From an uncultured Planctomycetota bacterium (GTDB lineage: Bacteria; Planctomycetota; Planctomycetia; Isosphaerales; Isosphaeraceae): a stretch of 64,000 nucleotides of DNA. Location of the stretch: NCBI GenBank assembly GCA_963823665.1, contig CAWGMQ010000010.1, positions 2,016,001 through 2,080,000 of the forward strand, written 5' to 3'. Within the stretch, counting starts at the first letter, position 1; the number at the start of each line of letters is the position of its first letter. The notes below the pieces were generated by a model. That model was not told the origin of the DNA, made no database searches, and saw only the letters and a list, made by a program, of their open reading frames with translations. This document shows, piece after piece, positions 14,479 to 59,000 of the stretch. The translations under genes and the position numbers were made by a program.

Positions 14479-14503
14479 AAATGAGTTTCGACGAAGCGCT
14501 TGC

Positions 14504-26222: not shown

Positions 26223-26299
26223 GGTTTGGGGCCCATCTCGTTGTGTTGGGTGTCGCGAATGTCGGTGAGCGAAGGCGACTGGACTCGAGCCAGCGCCGA

Positions 26300-30100: not shown

Positions 30101-30522
30101 TTCACGTACATCAGCATGCTCGGCACGACCTGGCTGACCAAGATCCCCTCCCGCACCACCAGGGGCGGGAGCTGAAACAGCACGATGTTGACCCGGTTTT
30201 GCACGTTCACGACATTGATGTTCGGGTCCGTGCCCGGCTCGAAGTAGATGATGATCGCCGCCTCACCGGCACTGGTCGCGGAGGAGGAAATGAAACGCAT
30301 GTTCTGGACGCCGTTGATGGATTGTTCCAACGGAATCAGAACCGATTCGACCAGGACATTGGCGCTGGCGCCGGGATAAGAAATGGAAACCATGACGGTC
30401 GGCGGCGCAATGTCGGGGAACTGTGCGATCGGCAGGGTCCTGATCCCCAGCACGCCCAGGAATAAGAGGATGATCGAGATCACGATCGCGAATGCCGGCC
30501 GATGGAGGATTCTCGTGAACAT
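27150..30522 (-). CDS. RND efflux permease, copy 2; extra bases at about 28103, 27372, 27188 and 27181
   Basis: Closely similar in DNA to copy 1; alignment of the two copies restores the frame and puts the stop at 27150-27152. Confidence 0.92.
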
Positions 30523-37976: not shown

Positions 37977-39441
37977 TCACGCCCGCGGTTGCCGGGCGGC
38001 GATGGTCCGGTCTGCCCACGACTTTGACCGAGCGTTCGGGATCGTGCCGCCGAATGCCAGATTGGCCGAGTGGGTCGCCAGGATCGTCGTCATGATGACC
38101 AGCTCGCCCACGCTGCGTGTGAAGTTGTCGCCGCGTGCCGGATCAATCGGCGAAACGGAATCGGTGGCCGTGAGCGGAGCGCGCTGCGCGATATCGACGT
38201 CAGAGGCGCTGGCGGCGCTCGCGCTCATCACTGTCGGGGCGGTGAATGAGGCGGATTCGGCCTGATCGGTCAGGAATACCTCTCTATGGAGGTCGAAAAC
38301 GGCGTCGCCTCCGGCCTTTTCCTCGGCCTCGGCCGGCGCCGGAACGCCGACGGCGTCAGAGACAGTCGAACCCGGCAACTCGCGCGTGCCGGCAAACGGA
38401 TCGAAGGCGAACATCTCTGGCTTGCTGACGTCTTGGCCGGGTCCGAGGGAAGTTGAGCTCGGCGCGGAATTGGCGATGGCGGCGGTGCCGGCGACGGTGC
38501 TGAGATTCGCACCATCGCCCGGATTGCCGGTCTGGCCCATGATGGGGCTACCGCTGCCGCTCGTGCCGATCAGGCTTGCAGAAGCGCTCACCGAGCCCCC
38601 AGCGCTAGCGAAGAGAGCACCGGCTATCGCGATGGGGCTGGTTCCCTGCGTATTCTGGGTAACGAGTATTGGGGACGCGGTCGAAATGTTGTCGGAAAAC
38701 CTGCCGGCCACGGCACCGTGGAGGCGTTCGAAATTCTCCGGCGAACCTGTCCATGAACGCCGGAACGGGCGCGGGGGCGGTGGTTAACCCTCCGATCGTC
38801 GCCGAGTTCGTGGCGAGGGTGCCGTAGACCAGGGTCAACTGGCCGGTGACGACGGGAATTCCTCCTGCGGTGCTACCGGAGCTTGACCCCGAGGCGGTAT
38901 TCGTCGTTGTACCGGGGTTCGCGGTCGTCGTCGCGTTGCCTGGTGTGTTTGTCGCGTTACTCGCTGCGCTGGTCGCGTTGCCTGCTGGATTTGTTGCAGG
39001 GCTTGGCGAGGTCGAAACCGCGCCTCCGGCGGAGGATGCCGAGTTGCTGGCGACTGTGCCGGCCGCTCCCGAGCCGGTGGCGGAGTTGCTCGACGACGCG
39101 GAATCCGACCCGTTGACCGGGCCTCCGCCGCTCCAGATCGCACCACCGGCCTGCGCGGGATTGCCCGGTAACAATGGACCGCCGATCGTCACGATCCCCG
39201 AGGCGACAAAGGTCCCCTCGAGACTACCGATTGTGCTGATCGCGGCGATGCTCGCGCCGGGGGTTCCGATGTCCGCAACATGGGTCAAGTTCATGACGTG
39301 GATCGACGGTGATCCCGAGAGCATCAGGCGACCCTCGAGCCAATCCGGACGAAGCTCCGACGTGCGACCTCGCTGGTGATTCGTGGCGCGCGACAGATTC
39401 GGAAAAAGTCGAGAACGTGTGATGCGTTCGATGCGGTCCAT
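37977..39441 (-). CDS. Secreted Ser/Thr/Ala-rich planctomycete protein, frameshift near 38760
   Basis: LRPDWLEGRLMLS resembles the planctomycete LEPR-XLL motif; low-complexity body continues in the second frame. Confidence 0.55.
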
Positions 39442-39709
39442 CGGTGCTCCTTCACGGATTGGGGCAAGGCAAAAGTGGCCCACTGAAACCGGCAACGACT
39501 TTGGCGCAGCAACATAAAATGCTGGCGACGATCCAGGTGACGTGTTTATGCACGGTATTCGCGAATGGTATCTCCGACGATTGGGGTGACGCAATACGGC
39601 GGCGAAAAAGACGGTCGGGCTGCATAGAGATCATTTATTCACTTGGAGGTCCAACTCATATGGCGTGTTCGCCGCCACGGCAGGAAAAACCATCCAGAAA
39701 ACGCCAGCC

Positions 39710-40337
39710 TATGGAGACGCTCGAGGAGCTCAAGCGGCTGCGGACGATCCCGAAGGTCAAGCCGGCCGAGGCAGGCGGCAAAGTCGAGGCCACGATCCCC
39801 TTCCCGAGCGCCGGCCGCGACGTTTCGGCGGCCGACGTGGCGCAATCGCTCTTGACCGGCCGGTTCATGCCGAATGGGGACGGATCGAACGCTCCAGAGG
39901 TGGCTCAGGAAACGACTCCGCCAGCCGAAAGCGGTTCGGAAGTCATTTCCTCCTCGTCGCTGTCTCTGCCAGGGGGCGAGTCGCGGGGCAAATCGCGGCG
40001 CCAGGCGTACTGGCAGGGCGTGGCGCGGATCGGGCAGCAGGTGGCCGAGGCACTAGCGTACGCCCATGGCCAGGGAATCATACACCGCGACATCAAGCCG
40101 TCGAACCTGCTGCTCGACAACAAGGGGACGGTCTGGGTCGCCGACTTCGGCCTGGCGAAGGCCTCGGACCAGCAAGACCAGACGCATACGGGAGACCTCC
40201 TGGGCACGCTGCGCTACATGCCGCCGGAAGCCTTCGGCGGCAAGGCCGACGCCCGCGGTGATATTTATTCGCTTGGCCTGACGCTCTACGAGCTGCTCGC
40301 ATTCCGCCCGGCGTTCGACGAGGGGGACCGGGACCGA
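39710..40337 (+). pseudogene. Ser/Thr kinase internal fragment
   Basis: HRDIKPSN, DFGLAK and GTLRYMPPE present; no Gly-loop or VAIK N-lobe; truncated at the C-terminus. Confidence 0.8.
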
Positions 40338-41400
40338 AACGATCACGGGCCGGGCGGCGAGCGTGACGGTCGACGCCGGCGGGAACAGCCGGGTGTTCCA
40401 GGTCGATGCCATTGTCACCGCGTCGATCTCGGGGATGACGATCAGCGGAGGAAGCAACGCGTCTTACGGCGGGGGCCTGCTCAACAGCGGGCGGGGCACG
40501 ATCGGGATCACCGGTTGCACCGTCGGCGACAATTCCGCGAGCTCCGGCGGCGGGCTCTACAATAATGACGCCACGGCGAATCTGGATGCCACCACGATCG
40601 GCGGCAACTCCGCGGGCTCGGGCGGTGGAATTGACAAAATGGACGATGGCGGCGCCACGCTCGAAGACACGATCGTTGCCGCCAATACGGGGACAGGCGG
40701 CACGCCCACTGACATCGGCGGTGCCAGCGCTACGGGAGTCGTCGGCACGTATGATCTGGTGGGGACCGGCAGCGCCGGGGGAATCGCCGGCGGCACAGGC
40801 GACATTGTCCTCTCCAGCCTGAGCGGCTTGGGGCTTGCCTCGCTCGGCGACTACGGCGGTTCGTCCGAGACCATGCCCTTGCTACCCGCCAGCGCCGCGA
40901 TCGATACCGGCACCACGATCCCGGGGGTCTCAACCGACCAGCGCGGCCTCCCCCCTCAAGCTCGACGCCCGACATCTGTGCGTTCCAGAGCCAGGGATTC
41001 ACGTTCTCGGTCGTCGCCGGCAGCACCCCCCAGCTCGTGGCCACCGACGCCGAGTTTGCCAATCCGCTGGCGGTCATCGCCACTCCGATCAATCCCGTCG
41101 AGCCGGTGGCTGGCGGGGTCGTGACGTTCACCGTCAATCCGGGCCCGAACGGTGCCGGGGCCACCCTCTCCCCGGCGACTGCGATCATCGGATCAGCCGG
41201 AATTGCCGAGGTCACCGCCACGGCCAATTCCATCGACGGGCCTTACACGGTCACCGCAACGGCCGCGGGCGGCACGCCGACGATCGATTTCGATTTGAAG
41301 AACCTGATCAGGCTCACGTTCTCGGGAGTAACCAATCAGAGCATCACCTACGGCCCATCGAGCGAGACCCTTTCCGGCACGCTGGCCAACGGCACTCAAA
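40338..41400 (+). pseudogene. Fragment of a beta-helix (choice-of-anchor Q-like) / Ig-repeat surface protein
   Basis: VDAGGNSRVFQVD, GGGLYN, LGDYGG..ETMPLLPASAAIDTG..TDQRG and QSITYG; no proper start or end. Confidence 0.75.
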
Positions 41401-41889
41401 ATGCCGATCAAGATCATCTACAGCGGCGATTCTGATTTCATGTCCAGCACGGCGACTCCGCCGGAGCTCGCGCGGTCGGGACTCAAGAGCCTGGCGCGGC
41501 CGATGATCGGGGAGACAGGGCACGCAGCGCAACGCCAACACTTTCGCGGTGGTCCGAAGATGTAGGCAGCCCTAACCCATTTCATTCTGGAACGGTTCGG
41601 ATCTCCCGACGGTGCCTGGGCCCGACGAATCCCCTCGAAGGATACCACCGCGCGCGGGAGAATTGCTACTTTCGGAATGCTGCGAATGGCTGGACCTGCC
41701 GCCAAAATCGCCTTCAAAATGGACCCGAAATACAGCCATATCTGAATGCTGGTGCTGGAGTAGGTCCTGGCCTGAGTGTGATGTCCCAAACATGCGCATT
41801 CGCTGAATTGTCGGAAATTTCATTTTTCCTGTCCTGCTTTCCTAGGTACGCGCTGGGTATAGTGTATGGGTACCTTCTTGGCCAAGACG

Positions 41890-42085
41890 CCCCACGACCC
41901 GGTCGACCCGAACGAGCAGGTCAGCGGCGGCGACCGCAGGGCGCTGCCAACGCTCTTCGAGCAGCATCGCGAGCGGCCCCGGCGGTTGGTGGATCTGCGC
42001 CTGGACCCCCGGATTCGAGCCCGGCTCGACGGGTCGGAGCTCGTCCGGGATGCGTTCCTCGACGTCGCCCGCGAGCGCAACGAGC
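41890..42085 (+). pseudogene. Truncated planctomycete ECF sigma factor N-terminus
   Basis: GDRRALPTLFEQHRERPRRLVDLRLDPRIRARLDGSELVRDAFLDVAR matches the sigma2 start; the rest is missing. Confidence 0.7.
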
Positions 42086-42193
42086 GACCGGAGTTGGTGT
42101 ACGCGCCGTTCGCGTTGGCTCGACATTGGCGAGGAAAGCCGCCGGACACAGGCCACTTGAGGATCACCGGCTGAACCACGGGACGCAAATCTG

Positions 42194-44605
42194 ATGATCG
42201 GCAACACGGTTCGCAACTATCGCATCGTCGCCAGGCTCGGCGCGGGCGGCATGGGGGAAGTGTTTCTCGCAGAAGACACACGGCTCGACCGGAAGGCGGC
42301 GATCAAGTTCTTGCCGGCCGAAGTGGCGAGCGACCCGGACCGTCGCCAGAGGTTCTTGACCGAGGCCAAAGCTGCTTCGGCGCTCAATCATCCGCACGTC
42401 TGCGTTGTGTACGACGTTGGGGAGACCGAAGATGGGCTGCCTTTCATCGCGATGGAGTTCGTGGAAGGGCTGACGCTCGGCGCGCTCGTGAACCAGGGAC
42501 GACCCGAGATCCCCACAGTCGTCCAGATCGCCGTCCAGGTCGCCGACGCGCTCGATGCCGCCCACTCCCGCCGGATCGTCCATCGTGACATCAAGCCCGA
42601 AAATATCAGCATCAATGAGCGCGGCGAGATCAAGGTCCTGGACTTCGGCCTGGCCAAGCGCATGTTCGAGGAATCCGCGGACTCGCTGGGAAAGACGGCC
42701 GACGCAGGGCAGACGCAGGACGGGCAGCTCCTCGGAACCCCCAGGTACATGAGCCCCGAGCAAGCGCTCGGCAAGGCCGTTGATCATCGCAGCGATCTCT
42801 TCAGTCTTGGCTCGGTCATCTACTTCCTGGTCACAGGCCGCCCGCCGTTTGCGGGGGCCAGCATGGGTGAAGTGCTGGACAACGTGGTCCACAAACAACC
42901 CGAGGCCCTGGCCCGTTTCAATTATGACGTCCCACCCGAGCTGGAACGGATCACGCTCAAGCTCCTGGCAAAACAGGTCGACCGCCGATACCAGTCGGCT
43001 CGCGATCTGCTTGTGGATCTCAAGAACCTGCACCGCGATTTCAATGACTCGCCGGCTCACCACCTGGCTGCGGCAACCCCGTCGATTCCGACACCGAAAG
43101 AGATCGCCGAGAGCGATATCGTCATCACCTACGCGAACCTGGATGACCGACCGGTCATGTCGGGGCGTCAGGGGTGGGTTTCGCAGCTCGAGCAAAACCT
43201 CCAGTTGCGCGTCGCGCAGCTTTCGGGTAAGCAGGTGGCCGTCGTCAAGCAGCCAGACGCGTCGGAGTCCGCCGACGTCGAATCGGCGATCCTCCAGCAG
43301 ATGCCGCAGGCCAAGACGGTCGTCTCGGTCCTCTCTCCCCCCTTCGCCCGGTCGAACGGGTGTCACCGGATGGTCGATACGTTCGCGAAGAGTACGCAGG
43401 CATCCGGGCGCTTCGAAGTCGGCAGTCGCTCGCGATTGTTGAATGTCATCAAGACGCCGGTGGACGCCGACGACTTGCCCCCCAACCTGCGTGCGCTTTA
43501 CACCGGTCTGGTACCCTACGAGTTCTTCGAGCGCGACCCGGTTTCGGGCCGGATGCGAGAATTCGACGAGGCGTTCGGAAGCACCGCTCTGCAACGCTTC
43601 CACGAGCGGGTTTATGACGTCGCCTACGACGTCTCCCAGGTGCTCAAATACCTGGGGGAAGGCCTCTCCGCTGGCGACAAGCGAACCGCGAATCCCAAGA
43701 CCATCTTTCTCGCCGCCACGACTTCGGACCTCGAACCGCAGCGCGATCAGTTGCGGCGCGAGCTGATCGAACTGGGGCACACGGTCGTCCCGAAGCAGCC
43801 GCTGCCCTTGGTTGCCAGCGAGCTGGTCGCGGTGGTGCAAAGTTGCCTCGTGCAGGCCGACGTCGCCATTCACTTCGTCGGTGAACACTTCGGACTCGTC
43901 CCCGAGGCGACTGATCTGTCGATGGTCGCTCTGCAGAACCAGGTGGCTGCCAGGTTCTGCGAGAACTCGTCGCTCAAGCGCCTGATCTGGATTCCCAAGG
44001 GACTAGTGCCCAGAGATGAGCGCCAGAGTTTGTTCATCCGTCAACTCGAGACCGATCCCCGCTCTGTCACCGGCGCCGAGCTGATCGCCGATACGCTCGA
44101 GAATCTCAAGGTGCTGTTACGCACCCGCTGGGAGCGAGAGCAGGCCGAGCGCGACAAGCCGGCACCAAAGCCGTCAGCCGGCGGCGCACCGCGCGTCTAC
44201 ATGATTTGCGACCAGAACGACGAGGCCGCACTCGAGCCGCTCGAAGACTTCTTCTACGCGCAGGGCATCGAGGTCAGCCTGCCGGGATTCGAGGCGGAAG
44301 AATCCGAGGTGCAGCAGATCCACATCCAGAACCTGCGCGATTGCGACGCGGCGCTCATTTATTACGGGGCAGCCGGCATGCATTGGGTGGACTTCAAGAT
44401 CCGGGACCTCCAAAAAGCGGCCGGCTATCGGGATTCGCGCCCCATACCAGTCAGCGCGGTCTATGTAGCACCTCCGTTCAATCACCGCAAGGAGCGCTTC
44501 AAGAGCGTCTCCACGGAAGTGATCCGGCAGGCGGAAGCCTCATTTGCCTCGGGATTACTCACGGAATTCGTCGCGGCCATCCGCCAGGCGAAGGAGGCCG
44601 TCTGA
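42194..44605 (+). CDS. Ser/Thr protein kinase fused to TIR-like, DUF4062-like and TIR-like domains
   Basis: Intact kinase (GAGGMG, AIK, HRDIKPEN, DFG, GTPRYMSPE); then DIVITYA..GWV, TIFLAATTSDL..RDQLRREL and RVYMICDQ..DCDAALIYYG. Confidence 0.88.
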   Translation: MIGNTVRNYRIVARLGAGGMGEVFLAEDTRLDRKAAIKFLPAEVASDPDRRQRFLTEAKAASALNHPHVCVVYDVGETEDGLPFIAMEFVEGLTLGALVNQGRPEIPTVVQIAVQVADALDAAHSRRIVHRDIKPENISINERGEIKVLDFGLAKRMFEESADSLGKTADAGQTQDGQLLGTPRYMSPEQALGKAVDHRSDLFSLGSVIYFLVTGRPPFAGASMGEVLDNVVHKQPEALARFNYDVPPELERITLKLLAKQVDRRYQSARDLLVDLKNLHRDFNDSPAHHLAAATPSIPTPKEIAESDIVITYANLDDRPVMSGRQGWVSQLEQNLQLRVAQLSGKQVAVVKQPDASESADVESAILQQMPQAKTVVSVLSPPFARSNGCHRMVDTFAKSTQASGRFEVGSRSRLLNVIKTPVDADDLPPNLRALYTGLVPYEFFERDPVSGRMREFDEAFGSTALQRFHERVYDVAYDVSQVLKYLGEGLSAGDKRTANPKTIFLAATTSDLEPQRDQLRRELIELGHTVVPKQPLPLVASELVAVVQSCLVQADVAIHFVGEHFGLVPEATDLSMVALQNQVAARFCENSSLKRLIWIPKGLVPRDERQSLFIRQLETDPRSVTGAELIADTLENLKVLLRTRWEREQAERDKPAPKPSAGGAPRVYMICDQNDEAALEPLEDFFYAQGIEVSLPGFEAEESEVQQIHIQNLRDCDAALIYYGAAGMHWVDFKIRDLQKAAGYRDSRPIPVSAVYVAPPFNHRKERFKSVSTEVIRQAEASFASGLLTEFVAAIRQAKEAV

Positions 44606-47600
44606 TGAAAACGGTTGACTCCCAGCCGGCCAATCCATTTCCCGGCCTTCGCCCGTTTCGCAGCGACGAGCACCATCTGTTCTTCGGCCGCGAGGAACAG
44701 ACCGCGGCGCTCTTGCAACTGCTGCGAACGAACCGATTCCTGGCGGTCGTCGGCACCTCGGGCAGCGGAAAGTCGTCGCTGGTGCGGGCCGGCATGATCG
44801 CCGAGCTTCACGGCGGCACCATGACCCGGGCCGGCTCGACCTGGGAGGTGATGATTCTCCGCCCCGGCGGCAGCCCCGTCGAGAATCTCGCGCGGGCGTT
44901 CGTCGAGTCCGATCTCTACGATCGGGAAGATCCCAGCACCCTGCCCCGGTTGCTTGCCACGCTCAACCGCAGCCGCTTCGGCCTGGTCGAAGCGATGAAA
45001 CAGTGCGAGCTGTTCGAACCGGGAACCAACCTGCTGGTCGTGGTCGATCAGTTCGAGGAACTGTTCCGTTTCCGGCAGCAGGGCGTCGATTCCGAGGAGA
45101 CGGCCGCCGCCTTCGTGAACCTGCTGTTGACTGCTAGCGAGCAGGCGGAATGGCCGATCTACGTGACCATCACGATGCGTTCCGACTATCTGGGTGACTG
45201 TTCCGAGATTCCCGGCCTGGCCGAAGCCGTGAACGATGGCGAGTACCTGATTCCCCGGCTGCTGCGCGATCAGAAGCGGGATGCGATCGAGAAGCCGATT
45301 GGCGTCGGCGGGGCGAATATCTCGCGGATGCTCGTGCAGCGACTCTTGAACGACGTGGGCGACGATCCCGATCAACTGCCGGTGCTGCAGCACGCGCTCA
45401 TGCGGATGTGGGATGCCTGGTCGACCGGCGGCGACGACGATCGGCCGATCGACTTCGCCGACTTCGAGGCGACCGGCGGCCTGGGGGCGGCGCTCTCCAA
45501 CCACGCCGATGAGATCTACGACTCGCTCCCTCACGACCGCCATCGGTCTGCCTGCGAGAAGATCTTCAAGACCCTCACCGAGAAGGGTGACGACAACCGC
45601 GGGATTCGCCGGCCGACGCGGCTGGTGCAACTCCAGGCCATTGCGGATTCCGCCCGCGACACGGTCACGACCGTGCTGGACGCCTTTCGCGGCTCGGGCG
45701 TGACGTTCCTGATGCCCGGCGCGGAGGTCCGCCTGGATGACCGAACGGTGATCGACCTGTCGCATGAGAGCCTGATGCGCGGCTGGCAACGGCTGCGGAT
45801 GTGGGTGGAGGACGAGGCGCAATCGGCGCGGATCTTCCGGCGGTTGCTGGACACGGCCCGGCTCTGGAGCGATGGGAAAGCCGGACTGTTCCGCGATCCC
45901 GATCTGCAGATCGCGCTCTCCTGGCGCGAGCAGGAGGCGCCCAATACCGATTGGGCCGAGCAATACGGCGGGCATTTCGAGACGGCGATCGGTTTTCTGG
46001 AGACCAGCAACGCGGACGCGGAGGCCGAACAGCAAGCCAAGGAAGCGGCCCGGCAGCGAGAACTGGAACAGGCGCGGCAGTTGGCCGAGGCCCAGCAACT
46101 GCGGCTGGAGCAGCAGCAGCGGGCGGCGCGCCGGCTACGCGTCATGATCGCCGGGCTCGCCGCGGTCGCGCTCGTTGCGGGCGCCGCCTGCGTCGTTGCG
46201 CTCTTCGCGAACCAGCGGGCGATCACGCTGGCGGCCGCGGCGCGGCATAACGAGGAGAGAGCCAGACAAAACGAAGAGAAGGCCAACCAGAACGCGACGC
46301 GAGCGGAGCAATCTCAGCAAGAGACGGCCAGCGCCCTCGCCCTCGTCGCGTCACAGAAGGCACAAGTCGAGGGAAGTCTGACCAAGGCCGAGACGGCCGA
46401 GCGGCTGGCGCGAGCCGCCGAGGAGGAGGGCCGGAAGCTACTCTACACGACCGATATGCGACTCGCCCCGTTTGTGTGGCGCGATGATCGGAGCACGGCG
46501 AATCAACTCCGCGATCTCTTGTCGAAACACATCCCCACCAGCATCTCGACCGTCGCCAAGCCCGATCTGCGCGGCTTCGAGTGGAACTACTACCAGCATT
46601 TACTCGAACATAACGCGGCGATTTTCTCGGGGCACGGCGTCTCCGTTGCCGGCGCTGCTTTCAGCTCGGGTGGTCGACTGGTTACCCTGGATCAGGAAGG
46701 CCAGGTAAGGCGATGGGAGCTGGATTCGCAGGACGAAGACACGGCAAATCGCCGCGACTTGCCCGGCGGCGCCACTGCTGGACTTCGCGTCTTATCTCCG
46801 AGCGGACGGCTGGCCGCGCTGGCTTCAGGCGATAAGATTCACGTATTTGACACGTCCACGGGCAAAGATACGTTTCAGATCGCTTCCGGCAATGTTTTTT
46901 ATCGCCGCCTGATTTTCTCGCGGGATGAAAAGAAGCTGGTCATTGTTGACGACAAGATTCGCTGGTGCGATGCCTCAAGCGGCGAGGTGATCGCATCCGT
47001 CGTCAATCAGGGGCTCACACAAGTAGCAAGTCTTGCCTTGTCCGCCGATGGTCTAACGCTGGCCGCGGTCGGCTACGCGCCCGGGGTTAACCCAGGATTC
47101 TTGATCCTTCGCCTGGACCCTACCACGCGCACAGTGACTTCGCTTGCAAAGGACCTCAAAGAGGAAGGTGAAGCATTGAATGCCTCCGCGCTCAGCCCCG
47201 ATGGCGAGCGGATTGCTGTAGGCTGTCAACTCAACGGATCGTTATTCGTTTGCGACACGGCCACAGGCCGCTCGATTGCGAGATTTGGGTCCGCGCACGC
47301 GTCGCCTATCTCGGCGATTGCCTTCTCAGGCGACGGCACGAAGCTGGCCACGGCCGATGTGGAAGGGACAATCAAGATCTGGGCCGACGCTCAGAAGCTC
47401 ACTTCGAAGAGCACAGCGCTCTGGACGCTCAAGGGTCATCAAGGCACGATCACAAGTGTCAACTTTTCGAGCGATGGCAAACGACTTGCAAGTGGTAGCG
47501 CGGACAAAACGGCCAGAGTCTGGGACCTGGAAAATGCCGGCGCGGCCATCCGGTCATTGGAACATTCCCGTGGTGATTGCTGGGTGGCGCGCTTTTCGGC

Positions 47601-50600
47601 TGATGGCCAGTTGATTGCCGCCGCCGACGGCAACCGCGTTCGTCTGTGGGACGCCGCCACGGGGCGACTCGTGCGGGACCTGTCGGCCGGCGACACGAGC
47701 CGGGTCTTCAGCGTGGCATTCTCGCCCACCGACAGCAACCTGCTGGCCACGGGACATGGTGGACAAGCGAATCTATCGTATGTCTCTCTGTGGGACATCC
47801 ATACCGGAACGGAAATAGCTCGGTTGCCGGGAGCGACCGACCTGCCCGGCTTCAAGGTTGCCGAAGAAAACGGGCCGGTCGGCGCGCTGGCATTTTCGCC
47901 CGACGGGAAATATCTGGTCGCCGGTTTCGGCTCAAAGTGGCTTCTATCGGCGGATAGTTCTCCCACTCCGCTGAAGGTCTGGGAGGTCGCCACGCGCCGC
48001 CTGATCCGCCGCCTTAATGGACACACCGGCTTCTGCGTTTCTCTCGACTTCTCCAACGATGGAAAGCTGCTAGCCAGCGGCAGCCGAGACGGAACGGCGA
48101 TCATCTGGTCAGCCCGGACCTGGAAGAGCACGCTGACGCTGCTGGATCCAGATCAGCGCTTGTCATTCGGCCGAGCTGGGCGGGGCATGGTCGATGATGT
48201 GGCGTTTTCGCCGGACGGCAAGATTCTAGCCCTGGCCAGCCGTGGGGGGAACGTCCAGTTGTGGGACGTCGCCTCCGGAAAACTTCTGCAAGCGCTCAAG
48301 GGACATTCCAACGCCGTCCAAGCCGTGGCGTTTTCGCCGGACGGTCGCACGCTGGCGTCGGGCGGCAGCGATCAAACGGTCCGCCTGTGGAATGTTGCGA
48401 CGCGGCGCGAACTGATGCAATTGGGTCAGGGCGGCATCGAGCTGGGTAATGTGACAACACTCGCGTTTTCGCCCGACGGCGAGCGATTGTTGACGGGAGG
48501 GGAGCACAGCACGCCTGCCTTCTGGTCCGCCGCGCCGATCGTGTGGAACGATCCAGGCCGCGCCGCCCTGAAACTGCGACTTCTGCTGAATTCGAACGCC
48601 GACTTCCCGAGCCGCATCCGGATGCTGTCCGAAAACCTGAGGCTGCACGAAGCGCTGGCGAAGCTCGACGCGAAGGATCGGCGCGTGCAGGCCGCGCTCG
48701 CCGCCACGCAGGCCAACTGGCACGCCTCGCGTCATGAATGGGCTCTGGCCGTTCGTGCCTTTGATCGGCTGGCGGCCGCCGACCCGTCGTCCCCGCCCGA
48801 CGCCTGGCTCCGTACGCCCGGACTGCTTCGTCTGGCGACGGCCCTCGCGCATCAGAATCGGCCTGCCGTGGCGGCCAAGCTATTGCAGGGAGGCGCGAAA
48901 CGCCGTAGCCAGGATGGGCTACCCACCGCCGCTCTACAGGTGGGAGTCGGCATTGCGTATGAAGAGGAGGAGTTGCATTCCCTTCGGGCGGCCGTCAATG
49001 AACGGCTCGCCGAACAGCCGCGAAACGCCGGACTTCTCGAACTGCGCGCCGAACTTGCGGGCCAGTGGTCGGATGCCAGGGCCCAGTTGGCCGACTACAC
49101 CGCCGCCATCGATGCCCTTTCGCCGCTGAAAGCCGAGGCCACAGCGGCCGATCTCGAGCGGCTGTACGGCCGCCGCGGCAACGCCCACGTCGCTCTGGAG
49201 CAGTGGCAAAAGGCCGTCGACGATTACGCTCGGGCCGTGGTTGACGCGACAACCGATGAAACTCTGCTATCCAACCAGGCGCTGGCACTTTCCGAGACGC
49301 TCCTTTCCTCCAAGCGATGGACCGTGATGAAACCGACCGAGATGAAATCAGCGCTGGGAGCGACTCTGGCATTGCAGGAGGACGGCTCCGCCTCGGTAAG
49401 TGGGAAGCTCCTGACCAAAGAGACCTACACGCTGGAATTCGAGGGCATTCCCAGGAAGATTCGAGCCATTCGCCTCGAGGCGCTCCGCGATGACCGGCTT
49501 CCGAACAGTGGGCCGGGGACGCATTGGTCCGGGAATTTTATCCTCAGTCATCTCGCGGTGTTCAGACCGGACGAAAGAGGTCCGGCAGCAACAAAGGAGG
49601 TCCCGCTGCGAGCCGTGTTTGCCACGTTCGAGGAACGCCGTGCCGAAACGTCCGTATCGAAAAAGGACCAGGATGCGGGCTGGAGCGTATCCCCCGCAAC
49701 GGGTAAGTCGCACAGCGCCATTTTCGCGATCGATCCCTACCAGGATAGAGTCGGCGCCGATCGACTCCGGATTGTGCTGGATTTTCGCCACTCTGACTCG
49801 ACCCCCGCGCTCCTCGGGCGGTTTCGTTTTTCGGTCTCTTCGGATGATCCAAAGGTCATCGCCAGTGAAGCAAGCACGCAACTGCGAGCGACGAACCTCA
49901 CCGATCCCTGGACAAAACTGGCCGCGGCTTACCGGCTCGCTGGCGATCAGCAGGCGATCGACGATCTGGTCGCGCGACGACCTCAAGCAGCGGGCGGCGT
50001 CGGCGACCTTTTCGCCGCGGACAGCGCCTGGGCCCGCGCGGTGGAAATCTACAGCCGGGGCCGCACGGCGAAGACGAACGACGCCCTATTGCTCTCGAAG
50101 CGGGCTCGCGCCTATGAGGCGCTCAAGAACTGGGAGGCCGCGGCAGCCGACTGGTCGCGGGCCGCGAGCGGGAATCCGGACGGGCCGCGGCTGCTCGCCG
50201 AGTTCGCAAGTCGACTTGCGGCCGGCGGCCCGGTTCCCTTGGCGAACGGTCAGTTCGAAAGGTCGCGAGCACTTTTCGAGGAGTCACTGCAAGCGGACCC
50301 TGGGAATGACCCGGTCGCTACGGAGCTGGCTCAACTTCTCCTGGACAAGCTCAGGCCCACGAAGCCGGATTGGGTCGTTCTCAGACCAGCCGAAACGAAG
50401 ACCGAAAATGGGACGTCGCTGACGTTGCAGGATGATGGATCGATTCTTGTTGCGGAGACGCCACCAGAGGTCGTCCGCTGGCAACCCGGTCCCACGCCGG
50501 TTCAGGCGCTGCGCATCGAGACCAGCACCCGTGCGGTCACACCCACCAACGGCGCCCCGCTATTCAACGAGTACCAGATCGTCGCGGCGAGCATGGCGGC

Positions 50601-53600
50601 TTCCGGATCCGGTGCCATACGGGGCCGGTTCGTGCGACTCGACCTGCCCGGGGACAGCAGTCGGTTTCCCAGGCACCCGGCGGAGCCCGATAAGAAAGTG
50701 ATCAACCTGGCCGAGTTGCAGGTGTTTCAAGGCGGTCAGAATATCGCCCTGGGGAAAAAGGCTCGGCAGTCGTCCATCTGGAGTGGGAGCGAGAGTCGAT
50801 TCCGGCCGGGAGGCGCCGTGGATGGCAATACGGTCGGTGATGATGATGGCAATCCCTACGCTCATACCGCGGAAAACGATCCGTGGTGGGAAGTCGATCT
50901 TGGCAGCGAAGAGGCGATCGAACGGATGGTTGTCTGGAATCGATCCGATGCCATCTTGTACTCACGCATGAATCATTTTCGTATCCGGGTGCTGGATCGC
51001 TCGCGAAAAGTTGTCTTCGAACGGGTCATCGAAAGGGCGCCGAGCCCTTCGAGAGAGATCGTCCCCCCGAAGCTTCTAGCGGAAGCGAACGCCGCGCTCA
51101 CCGGGGGAAATCAGCCGTTGATCGTGCGTTTGCCATTGAACCCGCACGAGGACGCGCCATCCCGCTTCCGCGTTTCGGTGGCTGACCGCCTTGTTGACTT
51201 GAGCCGGGAGGAAGAACGCGAGGAACGAGCGCAGCCGGGGTGGGCGGTGCTCAAACCGGCGGAATCGAAAACCCAACGTGGATCGAAGCTGACATTAGAC
51301 GAGGATGGATCGATTCTTGTTGATAGGAAACCAGAGACGGTTCGCTGGCAGCCCGGTCCCAGGCCGGTTCAGGCCCTGCGCATCGAGACCAGCAGCCGTG
51401 CATTCGCCCCCACCACCGGCGCCCCGCTTTTCAACGAGTACCAGGTCGTCGCGGCGAGCACGGCTGCTTCCGGATCCGGGGCCATACGGGGCCAGTTCGT
51501 GCGACTCGACCTGCCCGGGGACAGCAGTCAGTTTCCACGGCTCGCGAGCGATCTCGACAAAAAAGCGATCAACCTGGCCGAGTTGCAGGTTTTTCAAGGC
51601 GATCAGAACATCTCGCTGCGCAAGAAGGCTCGGCTGTCCAGCGACCTTGGCAATGAGCAGGTGGCCGAACTCGCCGTGGATGGAAATACGGCCGGTGACC
51701 AACCCCACATTGCCCATTCGGGATTCGAGAGTGCGCCCTGGTGGGAAGTGGACCTCGGGAGCGAACAGTCGATCGATCGGATGGTTGTCTGGAATCGACC
51801 CGACTGGGGGCTCTACAAACGCATGAGCCATTTTCGGGTCCGAGTGCTGGATCACTCACGAAGACTGGTCTTCGAGCAGGTCGTCGAACAAGCTCCGGCC
51901 CCTTCGGCAGAGATCGTTCCTCGGGCGTTGCCGGCGGAAGCGCTTCCCGCGCCGACCGGAGAAAACCAGCCGTTGATCCTGCGGTTGCCATCCCAGCCGG
52001 ACAACGACGCTCCGGCCCGCTTTCGCGTTTCAGTCGCCGCTCGGCTCCCTGATGTGGACCTGGATGAAAACCGCGAGGAGGCCATGAAAATTAACGACGT
52101 CGCGACGCGTCTGGCGGTCGCTTACGCGATGAACGGTCGCAATGACGAGGCGTCGCAGTACTTTGGCCGGGCACTCCAGCAGGCCGACGGTTATGAGGCA
52201 AGGACGCCGATCGTCGAATTCGCATCGCGTTTTGACGACGTGCTTTCCGCCTTGATCAAACAACAGCCTGAGGTTTCGCAATTGCAGTTGGCTTGGGCAC
52301 GACGTCTTGCGGAGCGGGGCAAGCAGCGTCTGGCCGAGAAGCAAGCGGCGAAAGCACTGACTGAGTTGGACGAATCCCGCAAGATTTTCACGCGGCTGCG
52401 CGGAAATGCCTTGGAAGGTGCCCACCCCGGTCGAGATGAAGACCGAAAACGGGTCCAAGCTGGAATTGCAGGAAGATGGCTCCGTTTTCGTTCACCAGCC
52501 CGCGAAGCGAGACACCTACACGCTCGTCTTCCGGACCGAACTGAAGGGCATCAAGGGCCTGCGTCTGGAAGCCCTGGCCGATTCCCGCCTGCCAAACGGC
52601 GGACCGGGGTGCTGGAACGATGGGAACTTCGTGCTCAGCGAACTGTCGCTGCACGCGGCCTCCGCCAAGAGCCACGACCAGCCAAGGCCCATCGTCTTAC
52701 GAAACGCGTGGGCGGATTTTAGCCAAGAAGGTTTCAACGTGCGTGGAACAGTGGATGGCAAAGGGTTGGGTTGGGCCATCGCGCCGGCATTTGCCAAAGA
52801 TCACATGGCAGTCTTTCAAGTAGCCGAGGAACTTGGCGACGGCCAGACCCTTCGACTCACGGTCCGGCTTAACCACAAGTTTCACTACGAGAAACACTTG
52901 CTTGGCCGCTTCCGCTTGTCGTTTACCAACGATGCGAATGCGACAACGTTGCAAGCGGCGCGAATTCGGCCGGATCTGAAAGACAGCGAGGTGGCGGACC
53001 TCTGCGTCGCCCTTGGAAAGGCCCATGCCCAGCTAGGTGGTAGCAGCGAGGCTGCTGCTTCCTTCGCCGAGGCTATTTCTCTGGCTGCCGACCGCGCCGG
53101 CAGAGCCAGGATCATTGAGGAGGCCGTGCCGCTCGAAGGTGTACTGGCCAAACTTGCGGACGGTGCGGCGGGCGATGGACGGTTCCAGGCCGAGCTGGCC
53201 CGACATTTCGCCGAACACGGCGATGCGCCAAGGGCGGACGCTTCGCGCACCAGAGCCCGCGCGGCGCTTGAAGAAAGCCTTGCCAAGGAGCCTGAGAGTT
53301 CCGCGGTGGTCGCGGAACTGAGCGACGTCCTGTTGCTGAACACCGCCGCCTGGACCGTTCTGAAACCGACTGCGCTGAAATCGGAAGGCGGGGCCGCCCT
53401 GACGCTCCAGCCGGATGGTTCTGTTCTGGCGAGCGGCGTCAACCCGGCCAAGGACGTATACGTCGTCAAGGCGGAGTTTCAGGGACCGATCGGGGCAATC
53501 CGACTCGAAGCTATCCCCGACTCAAGCATGCCAGGAGCCGGCTCTGGGCGGTATGGGAACGGGAACTTCATGCTCACCGATTTCCGGGTCCTGGCAGGGG

Positions 53601-55822
53601 AAAACGTGGTCACCTGGAGGCAAGCATCCGCCGATTTCAGCCAGGAGAATTCCTCGGGGAACTTTCGAATTGACTTGGCCATTGACGCGGACAAATCGAC
53701 CGGCTGGGCGATCTTTCCTGAGGTCGCCGAGCGCCACCGCGCGGTGTTCATCCCCAGCCGGCCGATCACCGCGGCCAGCGAGACCCATCTCACCATACGG
53801 CTGGCGTTTCAGAGCAAGCACTCGCATCATGCGCTGGGCCGGTTCCGGCTCTCGGTCAGTGAAGACGCGGCCGCTTTTGAAAGGGAAAGGAAACGCTTCG
53901 CCCTCGTGAACGTTGTCGACCCCTGGGCAAGACTGGCCGCCGCGTACGCGGTGAACGATCGCGACGATCTCGCGTCGCGATACTTTAGCAGAGCACTCGA
54001 GCGCGCCCACGCCTACGAGGCGAGGAAGCCGATCGTCGAGGCCGCTGCGCGTTTCGACGAGGTCCTCTCCGCCCTGATCGAACGGCAGCCCGAAGATCCG
54101 CAATTGCAGTTGGCACTGGCTCGGAAACTCGCGGAGCGGGGCAAGCAGCGTTTGGCGGAGAAGCAGCCCGCGCAGGCACAAGCCGCGTTGAAGAAGGCGC
54201 GGGAGATCCTCACACGGCTCCGCGTGGAGCCGCAGTGGACCGTGCTGACCCCGGTCGAGATGAAAACCGATAACGGCTCCAAGCTGGAATTGCAGGAAGA
54301 TGGTTCCGTCTTCGTTCACCAACCCGCCAATAACGACACCTACTCGCTCGTGTTCCAGACCGAGTTGAAGGGGATCAAGGGCCTGCGCCTGGATGCGCTG
54401 GCCGATCCCCGCCTGCCAGGCGGCGGACCGGGGTGGGCGCCCGATGGAGGCTTCGTGCTTAACGAACTATCACTGGCTGCGGCCCCTGCAAACAGCCCCG
54501 AGCAGCCGAGGCCCTTGGCCATACGAAACGCGTCGGCGGATTTTAACCAAGCGGGTTACAACGTCGGTAAAGCAGTGGACGGCGTCAGCGAGCCTTTCGG
54601 GGGTTGGGCTATCGCCCCCCAAGCCAACAAAGATCACGCAGCGGTCTTCGAGACGGCCGAGGAAATCGGTAACGGCAAGGCCACTCGGTTTACGGTCCGG
54701 CTCGACCACCTGTTTCACATGGAGAAACGCTTACTCGGCCGCTTCCGATTGTCCTTCACCAACGACGCGGCCACGTTGCAAGCCACGCGTATTCGATGGG
54801 ATCTGAAAGACAGCGAACTCCTGGACCTGAACGTCGCGCTGGCAGAGGCTTGTGCCCAACAAGGTCAAACCGATGTCGCCGTCGCCTCCTTCGCTGAGGC
54901 GCTCGCTCTGGCCAAGGACCGCGCCGGCAAAGCGAAGGTCATTGGGGAGGCCGCCCCGCTGGCAGGCGTGCTCGAAAAGCTGGCCGAGCGCGCAGCGGGC
55001 GACGCGCGGTTCCAGGCCGAGCTGGCCCGACATTTTGCGGAACGAGGCAATGCCCAGGCCGCGGACGCGGCACGCGCGCGAGCGTGCATATTGTTCGCCG
55101 AGAAGCTGGCGCAGGAGCCGGAGAACTCCGCGCTCGCCGCGGACCTCCTCTCGGCGTACCAGTCGGCCGGCCGCACGCGTGAGGCGGTCCTATTTCTGGC
55201 GAAGGCGTCCGCCGCCGATCCGAAGGACACAATGCTCTCCTTGAAGGTCGCCGCTCTCCAGGCGTGGTTCGGGCAGGAGAAGGAACTTGCCGCCACCCGG
55301 CAGCGAATCCTGGCGTCAGCCAAGGGCACCGCCGAATCGATCACGGCGGAACGCGCGGCCATGGCGTGCAGCATCCTTCCCTCCACCGACAAGGCAGAGA
55401 TCGAAGCGGCGCTGGCGCTCGGTCGCTCGGCGGTGAAGCTGGGTAACGGCGTGGAGTGGTGGAACCTGCTGGCCCTCGGCATGTCGGAGTGCCGTGGCGG
55501 CAACCACGCTGCCGCCGAGAAGGCCCTGCTCGCCGCGGTGGAATCCGTCAAGAACAGTCCGCTCGACGCCCCCGGCGTGACGGGCGCGTCATCCTTCTTC
55601 CGCGCGATGAGCCTGTTCCTACTCGGCAAGAAGTATGAAGCTCGCAAGCTCGCGATTGCGGCCGCGGCGAAGATGAAGCCCCTGCCGGCCGACGAGCGGA
55701 ACCCTCTGGCCGGCGATGAAACCGAGAACGACCTGATCGTGTGGCTGGCTTACAAGGAAGCGAAGGCCATGATCAGGTTCGACCCACTCCCAGCGGCCGC
55801 GGATCAACCCAAAGCGAAATGA
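44605..55822 (+). CDS. Giant nSTAND1 NTPase-TM-WD40-TPR-lectin protein (~3,739 aa; 2-nt deletion near 52401)
   Basis: NPFPGLRPF, Walker A GTSGSGKSS, Walker B VVVDQFEELF, LPVLQHAL and LSHESL; TM 46141-46210; WD40 repeats; TPR-like helices; discoidin/F-lectin domains. ATG overlaps the upstream stop (TGATG). Confidence 0.9.
50371..52050 (+). repeat. Tandem ~870-bp intragenic duplication (lectin module x2)
   Basis: 50371-51190 and 51241-52050 are similar in both DNA and protein. Confidence 0.85.
52105..55150 (+). repeat. ~1.2-kb intragenic duplication (helical block plus beta-sandwich module)
   Basis: 52105-53320 and 53930-55150 share long near-identical stretches, e.g. AERGKQRLAEKQ and NGSKLELQEDGSVFVHQPA. 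Confidence 0.85.
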
Positions 55823-56051
55823 TCGCGTCACCAGGATCCGATCCGCTCCCGAGTCTCGCCGTCATCTCGCAGCAAAAACGCGGCCGTACGCTCAGTGCAG
55901 CGAGCGCTTGGCGCGCGATTTGCTTGCGGAATTGCAAGTCCGTGGCGCGGTCGGTCGTTGAGAACGGGCCGAACGGTGAAATCGCTGGGAAAACAATAGC
56001 ATCAAGGCTTTGATCAGCGCGTCTTGGGGAGAATCCGGCTGTGGGACGCCG

Positions 56052-59000
56052 ATGAGCGACACGAAAAGAATGCCAAACGCCGATGCGCACTCCCTTCGCT
56101 TTCTCAGGGGAGGCGGCGAGATGGGTGAGCGCATTCGTGCATTCGACTGGTCAAAGACGCCGATTGGACCAGCGGAGTCGTGGTCACCTGCGCTGCGGAC
56201 GGTTATTCGACTGATGCTGTCGAATCGCTTGCCCATGTTGCTGTGGTGGGGGCCGCAGTACGTCTGCATTTACAACGACCCCTACTGCCCGGTTCTCGGC
56301 AACAAGCATCCATGGGGTTTGGGCCGTCCGGTGAGCGAGTGCTGGAAGGAAATCTGGCACGTGCTCAAACCACTGATCGACACGCCGTTCAATGGTGGTC
56401 CAGCAACCTGGGATGAGGACATTCTTCTCGTCATCAACCGCTACGGGTTCAACGAAGAGACGCACTGGCTGATCGCGTACAGCCCGGTCCCGGACGAGAG
56501 CGTACCGAGCGGCATCGGCGGCGTCCTGGCGACTGTTCATGAAATCACGGCGAAAGTGCTCAGCGAGCGCCGCATGACGGCACTGCGTGATCTGGGTAGT
56601 CATCCGGGCGAGGCAAAGAGCCCGGAGGCGGCGTGCATCGCGGCCGCAAGGACATTGGAGGCTTACGCCAAGGACATCCCGTTCGCGCTGCTCTACCTGA
56701 CCGAAGCCGACGGCAGGCACGCACGCCTGGCGGCGACCGCAGGAGTCGCACCGGGCCAGGACATCAGCCCAGAGCGTGTTGACCTCGAGTCAAAGAGCGA
56801 TGCGTGGCCATGGGTGGAAACAAAACGGAGCATGGATCTGCAGGTCGTAACCGATCTCGGGGCGCGCTTCTCGTCCGTGCCGTCCGGCCGCTGGCCCGAC
56901 CCACCGAACACCGCGGTCGTGCTGCCCATCGGTTCCAGCAAGCCGCACGAGCCCGTCGGGTTCCTCGTCTCCGGGGTCAGCAGTCAACTGCGGCTGGACG
57001 ACGCCTACCGCGGCTTTCTGGACCTCGTGACCACACAGGTCGGCACGGCCGTCGCGAATGCACGGGCCCACGCAGAGGAGAAGCGGCGTGCCGAGTCGCT
57101 GGCCGAACTTGACCGAGCCAAGACGACCTTCTTCTCGAACGTCAGCCACGAATTCCGCACCCCGCTGACACTCATGCTCGGCCCCCTTGAGGATGCCCTT
57201 GCCGAGACGGAAAGCGACTTGCCGCCCCAGCAGCGAGAGCGGCTGGAAATTGTCCGCCGCAACGGGCTGCGTCTCCACAAACTCGTCAACACTCTGCTCG
57301 ATTTCTCCCGCATCGAAGCGGGGCGGGTTCAGGTCAGTTTTCAACCGGTCGATCTGGCAGCGCTTACCAGCGATCTGGCAAGTAATTTCCGCTCGGCCTG
57401 CGAGAAGGCGGGCCTCGAGCTCGTCGTGGACTGCTCCGTGCTGTCGGAGCCGGTGTATGTGGACGCCGAGATGTGGGAAAAGATCGTTTTCAATTTGATC
57501 TCGAACGCCTTCAAGTTCACTTTGAAGGGCCGTATCGAGATCACGCTGCGGCAGTCGGACCGGCACGCCGAGCTGGTTGTGCGGGATACCGGTGTCGGCA
57601 TTCCGGGCGACCAGATGCCCAGGCTGTTCGAGCGGTTTCATCGAGTCGAGGGAGTCACGGGACGATCGCTTGAAGGCTCCGGCATCGGACTGGCTCTCGT
57701 CCGAGAACTGCTGCGCCTCCACGGCGGCCAGATCAGCGCCACGAGCGAGATCGGCAAGGGGACTTCATTTGTCGTGACGGTTCCGCTGGGTACCGCCCAC
57801 CTTCAGGGTAAGCTACTCGCTCCGGCTCCGGCCTTGATTTCGACGGCGCTGCGCACCGGCCATCACGTCGAAGAGGCGTTGCGCTGGTTGCCCGATGCTG
57901 GTCCCGCTCTCCTTGAAGAGGCGACTCTGATCGGCGAGGTCGAACAGGAACGGAGGCCGGGTCATCAGCCGGGCGGCAACGCGTTCCGTATCGTGATCGC
58001 CGACGACAACGCCGACATGCGGCAACACCTCGAGCGCGTTCTCTCTCAACACTATCACATCGAGGCGGTATGTGATGGTCAGGCGGCGCTCGATGCCGTC
58101 AAGCGGTCGATGCCCGACCTGATCCTGGCGGATGTCACGATGCCCCGGCTTGACGGGTTCGGGCTGCTCAAAGCCCTGCGATCCGACCCGAGCACGAGCG
58201 GATTGCCCTTCGTCATGCTCACGGCCCGTGCCGGCGAGGAAAGCCGGGTCGACGGGATGGAGGCCGGGGCAGACGACTACCTCGTGAAGCCATTCAGCGC
58301 CGAGAGCTTCTGGCCCGTGTCGGTGGGCACCTCCAGATGGCACGGCTGCGACAGCAGGCCGGCGCAGCCGCGCGGAAGAGTGAAGAACGGATGCGTCTCT
58401 TGTGGGAATCGGCGGCCGTGCTGCTGACCACCGATGATCCTGAGACGATGTTGCGAAACCTTTTCGCCAAGATCGGGCCACACCTGGGGCTGGACACCTA
58501 CTTCAACTTCATGGTCAATGACAGCGGCACGGGACTCAAGCTGGCATCTTGCACCGGCGTCTCGGACGAGGCCGCGGGCACCATCAAGAACCTGGAGTTC
58601 GGGCAGTCCATTTGCGGCACGGAGGCCATGCTCCGCATGCCAGTCACCGTCACGTTCATCCAGCGGTCTGATGACCCGAAGGCGCAGTTGGCGAAATCGT
58701 TCGGTATCAGAGCGTATGCCTGCAATCCGCTGATGACGGGCGACGAATTGCTTGGCACATTGTCGTTCGCCAGCCGCAGTCGGGATGAGTTCGACGCCGA
58801 GGAGCTGGACTTCTTGCAAACGATCTGCCGGTACGTCACGGCTGCCTATGAACGGCTGCGACTTATCGGGCAGTTGCGCGAGTCAGATCGCCGCAAGGAT
58901 GAATTCCTGGCGACACTGGCCCATGAACTCCGCAACCCGCTGGCGCCGATCCGCAACGGTCTGCACGTCCTGCGGCTTGGCGGCGCCGGTGGCGAGATGG

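Follow-up and report, generated by a model that had tools for sequence, protein, structure and literature searches.

Receptors of the STAND/NLR kind are regarded as intracellular sensors, and bacterial TIR and NIR domains as effectors that destroy NAD. In the TLR/MyD88/IRAK relay of animals, the sensor lies outside the cytoplasm, the receptor clusters TIR scaffolds, and a kinase is the output. Here, we describe a locus of two adjacent genes in a 64,000-nucleotide window (the whole stretch of DNA that was analyzed; G000:C10:2016001-2080000) from the 16.46 Mb, 12-contig genome of an uncultured soil Planctomycetota bacterium of the Isosphaeraceae. Gene 1 encodes a Ser/Thr kinase joined to three TIR-fold domains, and gene 2, directly downstream, encodes a giant receptor that opens with an nSTAND1 NTPase. 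The two genes make up a genuine module that is conserved and belongs with the nSTAND1/NLR-like systems; its topology is unusual, and its effector has likely changed. The module departs from both of the views on receptors and effectors given above, as the NTPase forms the head of a membrane-spanning protein with predicted outside sensors, and the partner has apparently traded NAD cleavage for a kinase.

The nSTAND1 family was named for FGS-centred systems with TIR, kinase or peptidase effectors or effector-associated domains (EADs) (Kaur, Iyer, Burroughs and Aravind, eLife 2021, PMC8195603; this and the other papers given below by accession or DOI are represented here by part of their text). 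With these nSTAND1-centred conflict systems, the locus shares the PF20703 NTPase, the TIR and Ser/Thr kinase effector classes, lectin-fold sensors, and an effector that is sometimes encoded by a neighbouring gene. In the forms described there, the NTPase protein bears an effector or EAD at its N-terminus, and the sensor is an FGS or C-type lectin (PMC8195603), whereas the NTPase protein here has no N-terminal domain; unlike them, the locus also has a triple TIR-fold partner and a transmembrane helix placed between the NTPase and the WD40, TPR and carbohydrate-binding-module (CBM)-like sensors. No EAD family was listed for gene 1, for the second frame of gene 2, or among the best 25 of the 55 Pfam families matched by the first frame of gene 2, and the EAD-linked ternary or binary organization was not found.

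Another of the closest known systems is PsAvs2, an Avs2 protein with an N-terminal NIR/DUF4062 domain (10.64898/2026.09.04.749371), in which a STAND NTPase is likewise combined with a DUF4062/NIR-type domain and a C-terminal repeat sensor, and oligomerization is the expected switch. PsAvs2 is a single cytoplasmic protein that has the catalytic residue E108 and senses the phage terminase, and its NTPase family differs from that of gene 2, whereas here the NIR-like domain has a Gln, lies on a separate protein with TIR and kinase domains, and the sensor stands behind a transmembrane helix. DUF4062 is a TIR-like NADase according to three 2026 preprints (on Swarozyc; on NIR with Avs2, Vulcan and Vesta; and on Evangelion), and for TIR as well as DUF4062/NIR a role as the NADase effector of STAND defence proteins has been proven (10.64898/2026.09.04.749371; 10.64898/2026.05.01.722283).

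The body of gene 2 has its own counterpart in the Ser/Thr kinases of Planctomycetota in which one transmembrane helix is followed by long WD40/TPR arrays that are predicted to be periplasmic (PMC11032199). There, the kinase domain itself forms the cytoplasmic head of the chain, whereas here the head is nSTAND1 and the kinase is found on the partner. TIR-NLRs and the TLR/MyD88/IRAK relay share with the module TIR-fold domains clustered by an oligomerizing receptor and, in the case of TLRs, a sensor outside the cell; unlike them, the module has no receptor TIR and no Death domains, and docking is predicted to occur between a TIR-like domain and the NTPase, so that the likeness is one of logic and not of descent. 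The nSTAND1 domain also recurs among the targets of diversity-generating retroelements (PMC10907252) and in ParA fusions (10.64898/2026.10.19.760177). A STAND survey (Nature 2026, PMC13581612) lists WD40 and FGE sensors and, in the part of its text available, has the word "transmembrane" only in a figure legend. We found no paper with a split, membrane-spanning, kinase-bearing nSTAND1 arrangement, and supplements may hold such architectures. The original prediction did not know this architecture as a described system; its parts have been described (nSTAND1, PMC8195603; DUF4062/NIR, the three preprints). The features of the two genes are as follows.

42194..44605, + strand: gene 1, soluble partner of 803 aa (kinase, TIR, NIR/DUF4062-like and TIR-like domains), from its open reading frame (ORF), Pfam, an AlphaFold2 model and fold matches
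42218..42994, + strand: Hanks-type Ser/Thr kinase, residues 9-267 (Pkinase, 148.2 bits, cut-off 31.7)
43106..43660, + strand: domain A, TIR fold, residues 305-489 (5-189 of the 503-residue piece), from fold matches
43697..44131, + strand: domain B, DUF4062/NIR-like, residues 502-646 (202-346 of the piece), from a DUF4062 match and Z 11.9 to the CMP N-glycosidase BcmB
44183..44602, + strand: domain C, third TIR-like domain, residues 664-803 (364-503 of the piece), Z 11.8 to the TIR of TIR-STING
44593..44607, + strand: coupling junction, GGAGG and then TGA/ATG sharing one base, from the sequence
44605..55822, + strand: gene 2, giant receptor of 3739 aa counting two missing bases, frame 1 to ~52401 and frame 2 from ~52403
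44635..45876, + strand: nSTAND1 NTPase, residues 11-424 (PF20703, 321.4 bits against 27.1, E 1.5e-95, profile positions 1-374 of 379)
46135..46215, + strand: single predicted transmembrane helix, residues 511-537 (Kyte-Doolittle peak 2.59)
47122..48534, + strand: WD40 beta-propeller region, residues ~840-1310 (WD40, 208 bits; many propeller families)
49318..54760, + strand: six beta-sandwich modules with TPR-like helices between them (starts 49318, 50371, 51241, 52412, 53351, 54236)
52397..52402, + strand: frame break, (GC)2 in the window and (GC)3 in two metagenome contigs, from contig alignment
54776..55819, + strand: C-terminal TPR-like helical region (TPR_2, TPR_7 and TPR_19, all below cut-off)

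The two genes form one unit. The TGATG overlap at 44603-44607, to which the original prediction had pointed as a sign of translational coupling, is present, with the stop TGA at 44603-05, the start ATG at 44605-07 and a GGAGG at 44593-97, 7 nt upstream. In relatives, this junction shows an ATGA overlap (genomes G033 and G006) or a gap of 20-25 nt (G018 and G031). The 503-residue C-terminal part of gene 1 has relatives in 8 of 60 related genomes (8/36 in the family and 0/24 in the other families of the class), and a profile search added 3 genomes among 300 sampled across the phylum. An nSTAND1 gene lies directly downstream of the partner gene at 13/13 of these loci (8/8 and 5/5), which belong to 11 other genomes; the adjacency check that had been proposed thus came out in favour of the pairing. 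The kinase is present at eight of the 13 partner loci and absent from the other five. The flanks are not conserved, since nine of the 11 window ORFs that were queried had no match in the loci of the relatives; of the other two, a partial kinase ORF matched kinase domains only, and the only match of a short ORF immediately before gene 1 was in G012.

In a library of 1.84 billion proteins, the C-terminal unit of gene 1 gave 3449 matches at E <= 0.001, and a threshold of E <= 1e-30 left 834 representative clusters. Most of the listed matches are stand-alone proteins of ~500 aa, and the typical protein among 24 that were scanned consists of TIR_2, DUF4062 and a third domain. Some of these 24 carry an N-terminal kinase, while P0186 has a C-terminal kinase, P0258 an EAD1 domain and P0221 an in-frame fusion to nSTAND1, the only such fusion among 150 listed representatives; no long fused form of the partner turned up when one was searched for, which is weak evidence. 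The nearest public proteins to those of the locus are named from metagenome-assembled genomes of Isosphaeraceae, Planctomycetaceae and Pirellulales.

Gene 1 was predicted to be an intact Ser/Thr kinase followed by three flavodoxin-fold domains of the TIR/DUF4062 type, and Pfam, the AlphaFold2 model and the fold matches all agree with this description. The kinase motifs are intact in the translation (Gly-loop, AIK Lys, HRDIKPEN and DFG), and a hydropathy scan found no hydrophobic helix in the protein. Residues 504-579 match DUF4062 (29.3 bits, cut-off 24.7), and residues 327-399 match TIR_2 below the cut-off (22.7 against 28), which homologues exceed; domain C is without a Pfam match. The model of residues 301-803, built on an alignment of 87 relatives, reached a predicted local distance difference test (pLDDT) of 93.9 and a predicted TM score (pTM) of 0.75, and consists of three flavodoxin-like domains. 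Fold matches were taken per domain range; a whole three-domain Foldseek run was dominated by multi-domain Rossmann-type matches. The best matches of domain A were the RPV1 TIR (Z 14.2, root-mean-square deviation 2.6, 144 residues aligned) and the SPARTA TIR-APAZ (14.1), within a range of 14.2-13.3 for plant, SPARTA and SARM1 TIRs. Domain B alone gave no match to solved structures with phmmer, and its structural match of the BcmB type has also been reported for DUF4062/NIR (10.64898/2026.09.04.749371).

In the window protein, domains A and B each lack the catalytic glutamate of their family, as read from sequence alignments. The family profile places the "S.WC..E" motif of domain A on the catalytic Glu of RUN1 ("WCLDEL") and other plant TIRs. 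At least 90% of the 87 relatives in the alignment have a Glu in this column, which holds Met393 (codon 43370-43372) in the window; domain A thus has the fold of a TIR NADase but not its catalytic glutamate. At this position, each of the 120 relatives that are close (76-91% identity) has I, L, M or V, indicating that the loss is fixed and is not a recent lesion. In domain B, Gln581 (codon 43934-43936) occupies the position of the catalytic Glu, and this Gln is nearly invariant in the family. The assignment was made through a canonical DUF4062 protein encoded in this genome, which was aligned to the solved KpSwz chain (phmmer, E 9.7e-25); the Ala of the KpSwz E97A construct is aligned with the second Glu in the "S.TE.E" motif of that DUF4062 protein, and hhalign placed Gln581 on that same Glu (probability 86%, E 5e-6). 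Domain B therefore has the profile match and the NDT/TIR-like fold of DUF4062/NIR NADases without the glutamate that corresponds to KpSwz E97 and PsAvs2 E108. Changes of this residue from E to Q inactivate PsAvs2, Vulcan, VstA and the NIR of human TEP1 (10.64898/2026.09.04.749371). A distant genome, G254, has three kinase-fused copies of the pair (L029, L032 and L034), with H, Q and P at the TIR column, and only L034 has a Glu at the NIR column.

The loss of both residues favours the kinase as the output, and the intact kinase of gene 1 is likely, on these sequence grounds, to be the output of the module. Kinase-less relatives differ in this respect. After 18 sequences had been dropped as fragments or because of a gap at the TIR Glu column, 133 representatives were kept, among which the TIR Glu is retained in 108 of 113 kinase-less proteins versus 8 of 20 kinase-fused ones; in the fetched loci, it is retained in 5/5 without and 3/9 with the kinase. 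Its retention by kinase-less relatives points to NAD+ cleavage in the ancestor.

The receptor encoded by gene 2 begins directly with an intact nSTAND1 domain, in agreement with the original prediction. The match starts at residue 11 with profile position 1, which leaves no room for an N-terminal effector. Its Walker A (GTSGSGKS, residues 50-57) and Walker B (DQFEE, residues 148-152) motifs are invariant in 7/7 aligned heads. Of the tripartite organization of STAND/NLR proteins, the C-terminal superstructure-forming repeats (WD40 and TPR) were found and the N-terminal effector on the NTPase protein was not. The transmembrane helix is flanked by coiled-coil-like stretches rich in Glu, Gln and Arg, no second hydrophobic helix was seen in gene 2, and hydropathy placed a helix at the same position in 117 of 119 homologues. 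The six beta-sandwich modules all open with "W.VL.P" (gene 2 residues 1572, 1923 and 2213; residues 3, 316 and 611 of the second frame). F5_F8_type_C (discoidin) domains were detected in two stretches, in modules 2 and 3. Module 4, one of the four without a Pfam match, was folded with 12 sequences (pLDDT 87, pTM 0.86) as a beta jelly-roll, whose best fold matches are carbohydrate-binding modules and glycosidase accessory domains (BT0290, Z 10.3; SGBP-B, CBM86, CBM32, CBM6 and others, 8.7-7); as these Z values are middling, the claim concerns the fold class and not the ligand. The coiled coil, single transmembrane helix, WD40 repeats, TPR-like helices and six beta-sandwiches that had been predicted were therefore all found, but not in one open frame, a break that the prediction did not mention. 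The receptor family is large (3755 matches among the scored candidates), and its members, from Planctomycetota and Verrucomicrobiota, are giants 1500-4454 aa long; its heads are conserved (60-93% identity) and its tails vary (PDZ, TPR, discoidin, LamG and FGE).

A complex between the nSTAND1 head and the C-terminal unit of gene 1 was modelled. The ipSAE was 0.74, against 0.00 for the best of three controls; this mark is reached by 116 of 157 solved complexes and by 2 of 215 mismatched pairs, counts that are only rough because self-made alignments were used. The runs agreed in at least 94% of the contacts, with a partner pLDDT of at least 83. The modelled contacts join domain C (gene 1 residues 673-748) and the helix preceding it to NTPase residues 21-41, 66-80 and 220-253. 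The model supports the idea that the third TIR-like domain binds the NTPase domain. A TIR-mediated recruitment of gene 1 had been predicted, and the model passes its controls; gene 2 has no TIR, so the recruitment would not be between TIR domains but between a TIR-like domain and the NTPase.

The genome contains 37 nSTAND1 matches, and the loci of five of the stronger ones were fetched (L022-L026). Two have a TIR in cis (TIR-nSTAND1-WD40 and TIR/SEFIR-nSTAND1-FGE-sulfatase), one has a caspase gene upstream of an nSTAND1-WD40 receptor, and two have SIR2 genes upstream, one of these receptors having a second SIR2 at its own C-terminus. Receptors of the nSTAND1 type preceded by an effector gene thus recur in this genome, and at the present locus gene 1 occupies the position of that effector gene. 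Together with the absence of an effector on gene 2, these five loci lend support to the earlier proposal that gene 1 supplies the effector in trans, while the adjacency of the genes, the P0221 fusion and the complex model support the two genes being one unit. A decayed paralogous pair was also observed on contig 4 (L003, G000:C4:2146000-2165000, ~5988-15640), where the partner lacks residues 36-559 and the receptor, 73% identical, is spread over several frames. Downstream of it lies a kinase ORF, and the frames that come next encode a related transmembrane-WD40 body (60-66% identity to gene 2 residues 567-1235).

Upstream of gene 1 lies the remnant of a sigma factor gene of the extracytoplasmic function (ECF) type.

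41863..42171, + strand: ECF sigma gene remnant, Planctomycete type (TIGR02984, 31.9 bits against a cut-off of 183.75, profile positions 3-54 of 189)

It ends 23 nt before gene 1, is also present in the relative G012 (locus L015), and may be a relic of a sigma-kinase pairing. A search for the sigma family in five relatives gave more than 100 copies per genome, none of which could be placed beside the gene pair, and no sigma was seen when the upstream ORFs of G001, G033, G008 and G030 were inspected by eye. The ORF at 41778-42194 was rejected as a coupled upstream gene, as this frame is an Arg/Ala-rich text and the sigma-like frame is another one.

We consider it modestly probable that the locus is a two-gene, membrane-spanning, NLR-like signalling module whose effector acts in trans and whose output has changed from NADase to kinase. 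In such a module, the NTPase and gene 1 would lie in the cytoplasm and the repeats outside. Binding of an outside glycan or protein ligand would release the NTPase, nucleotide-dependent oligomerization of nSTAND1 would cluster the docked copies of gene 1, and the clustered kinase domains could then phosphorylate one another and a further target, with the Glu-less TIR and NIR-like domains serving as a scaffold. In the kinase-less, Glu-bearing relatives, clustering of this kind would activate the cleavage of NAD+, as it does in TIR-NLRs, so that the window lineage would represent an effector swap from NADase to kinase. A chain from an outside signal through STAND oligomerization to kinase activation had been proposed originally; its outside sensor is plausible, given the helix shared by 117/119 homologues and the Planctomycetota kinases (PMC11032199), but its TIR-mediated recruitment, taken as a contact between TIR domains, is not supported. 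A bolder and more tentative version, which we hold to be possible but rather doubtful, would make the receptor a bacterial transmembrane NLR, with lectin-like/WD40 sensing outside as in a TLR, NLR-like oligomerization, and a kinase docked on catalytically dead TIR-fold scaffolds. If this were true, the step from TIR executioner to kinase scaffold known from animal innate immunity would have been taken independently in Planctomycetota, and intermediates with both a kinase and a live Glu would persist among the relatives. In any case, the members of the family, which differ in the presence of the kinase, in the presence of the Glu and in being split or fused, form natural series that could show how immune effectors are rewired into signalling, and the docking of a TIR-like domain on the NTPase is a concrete structural hypothesis.

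Several observations weigh against the kinase-output module. PADLOC-DB 2.0, a search suggested with the original prediction, recognized no catalogued defence system: gene 1 matched kinase models only (PD-T4-6 and mad6, up to ~residue 365 at most), and gene 2 matched HEAT-ARM_XIII only, on the WD40 region. The topology, with the NTPase in the cytoplasm and the repeats outside, is deduced from a hydropathy plot and the positive-inside rule only, and the assignment of Gln581 depends on two chained alignments, one of them at the 86% probability given above. In G012, in G001 and in the paralogous pair of the same genome, gaps of 359, 788 and 1478 nt, respectively, separate the two genes, so the coupling is not universal. 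An intact sigma gene adjoining the kinase, as in the ECF43-type pairs of ECF sigma factor and Hanks kinase, was not found, as only the remnant is present. Three kinase-fused relatives (G001, G033 and G030) still carry the TIR Glu. The kinase state shows 12 changes along a tree built with FastTree, and once relatedness was allowed for, a test of kinase fusion against Glu loss on 9-12 independent pairs, with the Glu differing in ~1.6 of them and never in the same direction, was not significant (sign test p ~1). The association of kinase fusion with Glu loss is therefore suggestive and not established. Finally, frame 1 of gene 2 degenerates after ~residue 2599 into ~107 out-of-frame residues that end at a stop at 52722, and the remainder of the gene continues in frame 2 (52406-55822).

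This break could mean that the locus is decaying and that gene 2 is a pseudogene split by a strain-specific 2-base deletion, leaving the pair non-functional in this strain. The break is present in the window sequence, the second copy in the genome is clearly decayed (its gene 1 residues 36-559 are deleted and its frame changes several times), and fragmentation is also seen in the region before gene 1. The window was compared with four soil-metagenome runs from a single study, the best of which contains only 0.35 of the sampled words. No contig spans the full 1-kb stretch around the break, but two, from two of the runs, bridge the site itself; both (2/2) have GC inserted behind 52397, which restores one frame, with no other difference in one contig and one other difference in the second. 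An internal duplicate of the same junction likewise predicted a break at ~52402 with two bases missing. In five intact homologues (2968-4161 aa), both parts lie on one chain, with 6-9 residues between the point where the first ends and that where the second begins, and neither half of gene 2 has an in-frame stop, both aligning to intact homologues up to the break. Elsewhere in the window, four more genes are broken in the same manner, each lying in two frames that overlap: a recJ-like gene (9529-11333, +), secA (14504-16458, -) and two acrB-like genes (22865-26495, -; 27237-30522, -). Breaks in such essential genes indicate assembly indel errors rather than pseudogenes. We therefore read the break as an assembly indel in a short GC repeat and gene 2 as one gene of ~3739 codons, and consider decay of the pair highly improbable.

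Two further explanations concern the role of an intact pair. It could be a classical NLR-like defence by abortive infection, in which a non-canonical active site of gene 1 would still break down NAD+ or produce a nucleotide signal, with the kinase confined to regulation. This would agree with TIR and DUF4062/NIR being proven effectors of STAND defence proteins (10.64898/2026.09.04.749371; 10.64898/2026.05.01.722283), with the retention of the TIR Glu by most relatives, with the patchy distribution (8/36 genomes of the family, 0/24 in the other families of the class and 3/300 in the phylum sample), and with the decayed paralogous pair and the highly variable sensor part among homologues. It is contradicted by the Met and Gln at the two catalytic positions, the E-to-Q change abolishing the activity of four NIR proteins (10.64898/2026.09.04.749371), by a Glu loss common to 120/120 close relatives, by the lack of a system-specific PADLOC match, and by a sensor outside the cytoplasm, which would be ill-suited to intracellular phage proteins; we regard it as quite improbable. 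Alternatively, and with a little more to recommend it, though still unlikely in our view, the pair could serve ordinary, non-conflict sensing of the envelope or of nutrients, with the lectin-like modules reading extracellular polysaccharide and the kinase adjusting gene expression, as in the Planctomycetota kinases with transmembrane-WD40/TPR bodies. The strong conservation of gene 1 (76-91%) and of the nSTAND1 head (60-93% identity) among many environmental relatives would fit such a role, as would the CBM-type folds and discoidin domains of the modules, the transmembrane-WD40 body (60-66% identity) shared with the frame downstream of the kinase ORF near the paralogue, and the ECF sigma remnant before gene 1. 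It fits less well with the absence of the module from most searched genomes of the family and phylum and its unconserved flanks, and with the TIR catalytic Glu of kinase-less relatives, which points back to ancestral NAD+ cleavage. This explanation overlaps with the kinase-output module in mechanism and differs from it in biological role only.

Around the pair, a promoter and terminator scan of 41300-56300 showed no excess over shuffled sequences (1 versus 1.7 and 13 versus 14.2, respectively). Further upstream, 39423-41432 (+) encodes, in three different frames, a kinase C-lobe without an N-lobe, Gly/Thr-rich beta-helix-like repeats and an Ig-like stretch, and is a broken gene or the site of more assembly indels. 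Directly downstream, 56010-59992 (+) encodes two tandem hybrid histidine kinases (GAF-HisKA-HATPase_c-receiver), which are not kept beside the pair in relatives. They are followed at 60023-64000 (-) by a surface protein of more than 1295 aa with Ig-like domains that runs off the window, and at the opposite end of the window, 142-1518 (-) encodes a leucine-rich-repeat protein.

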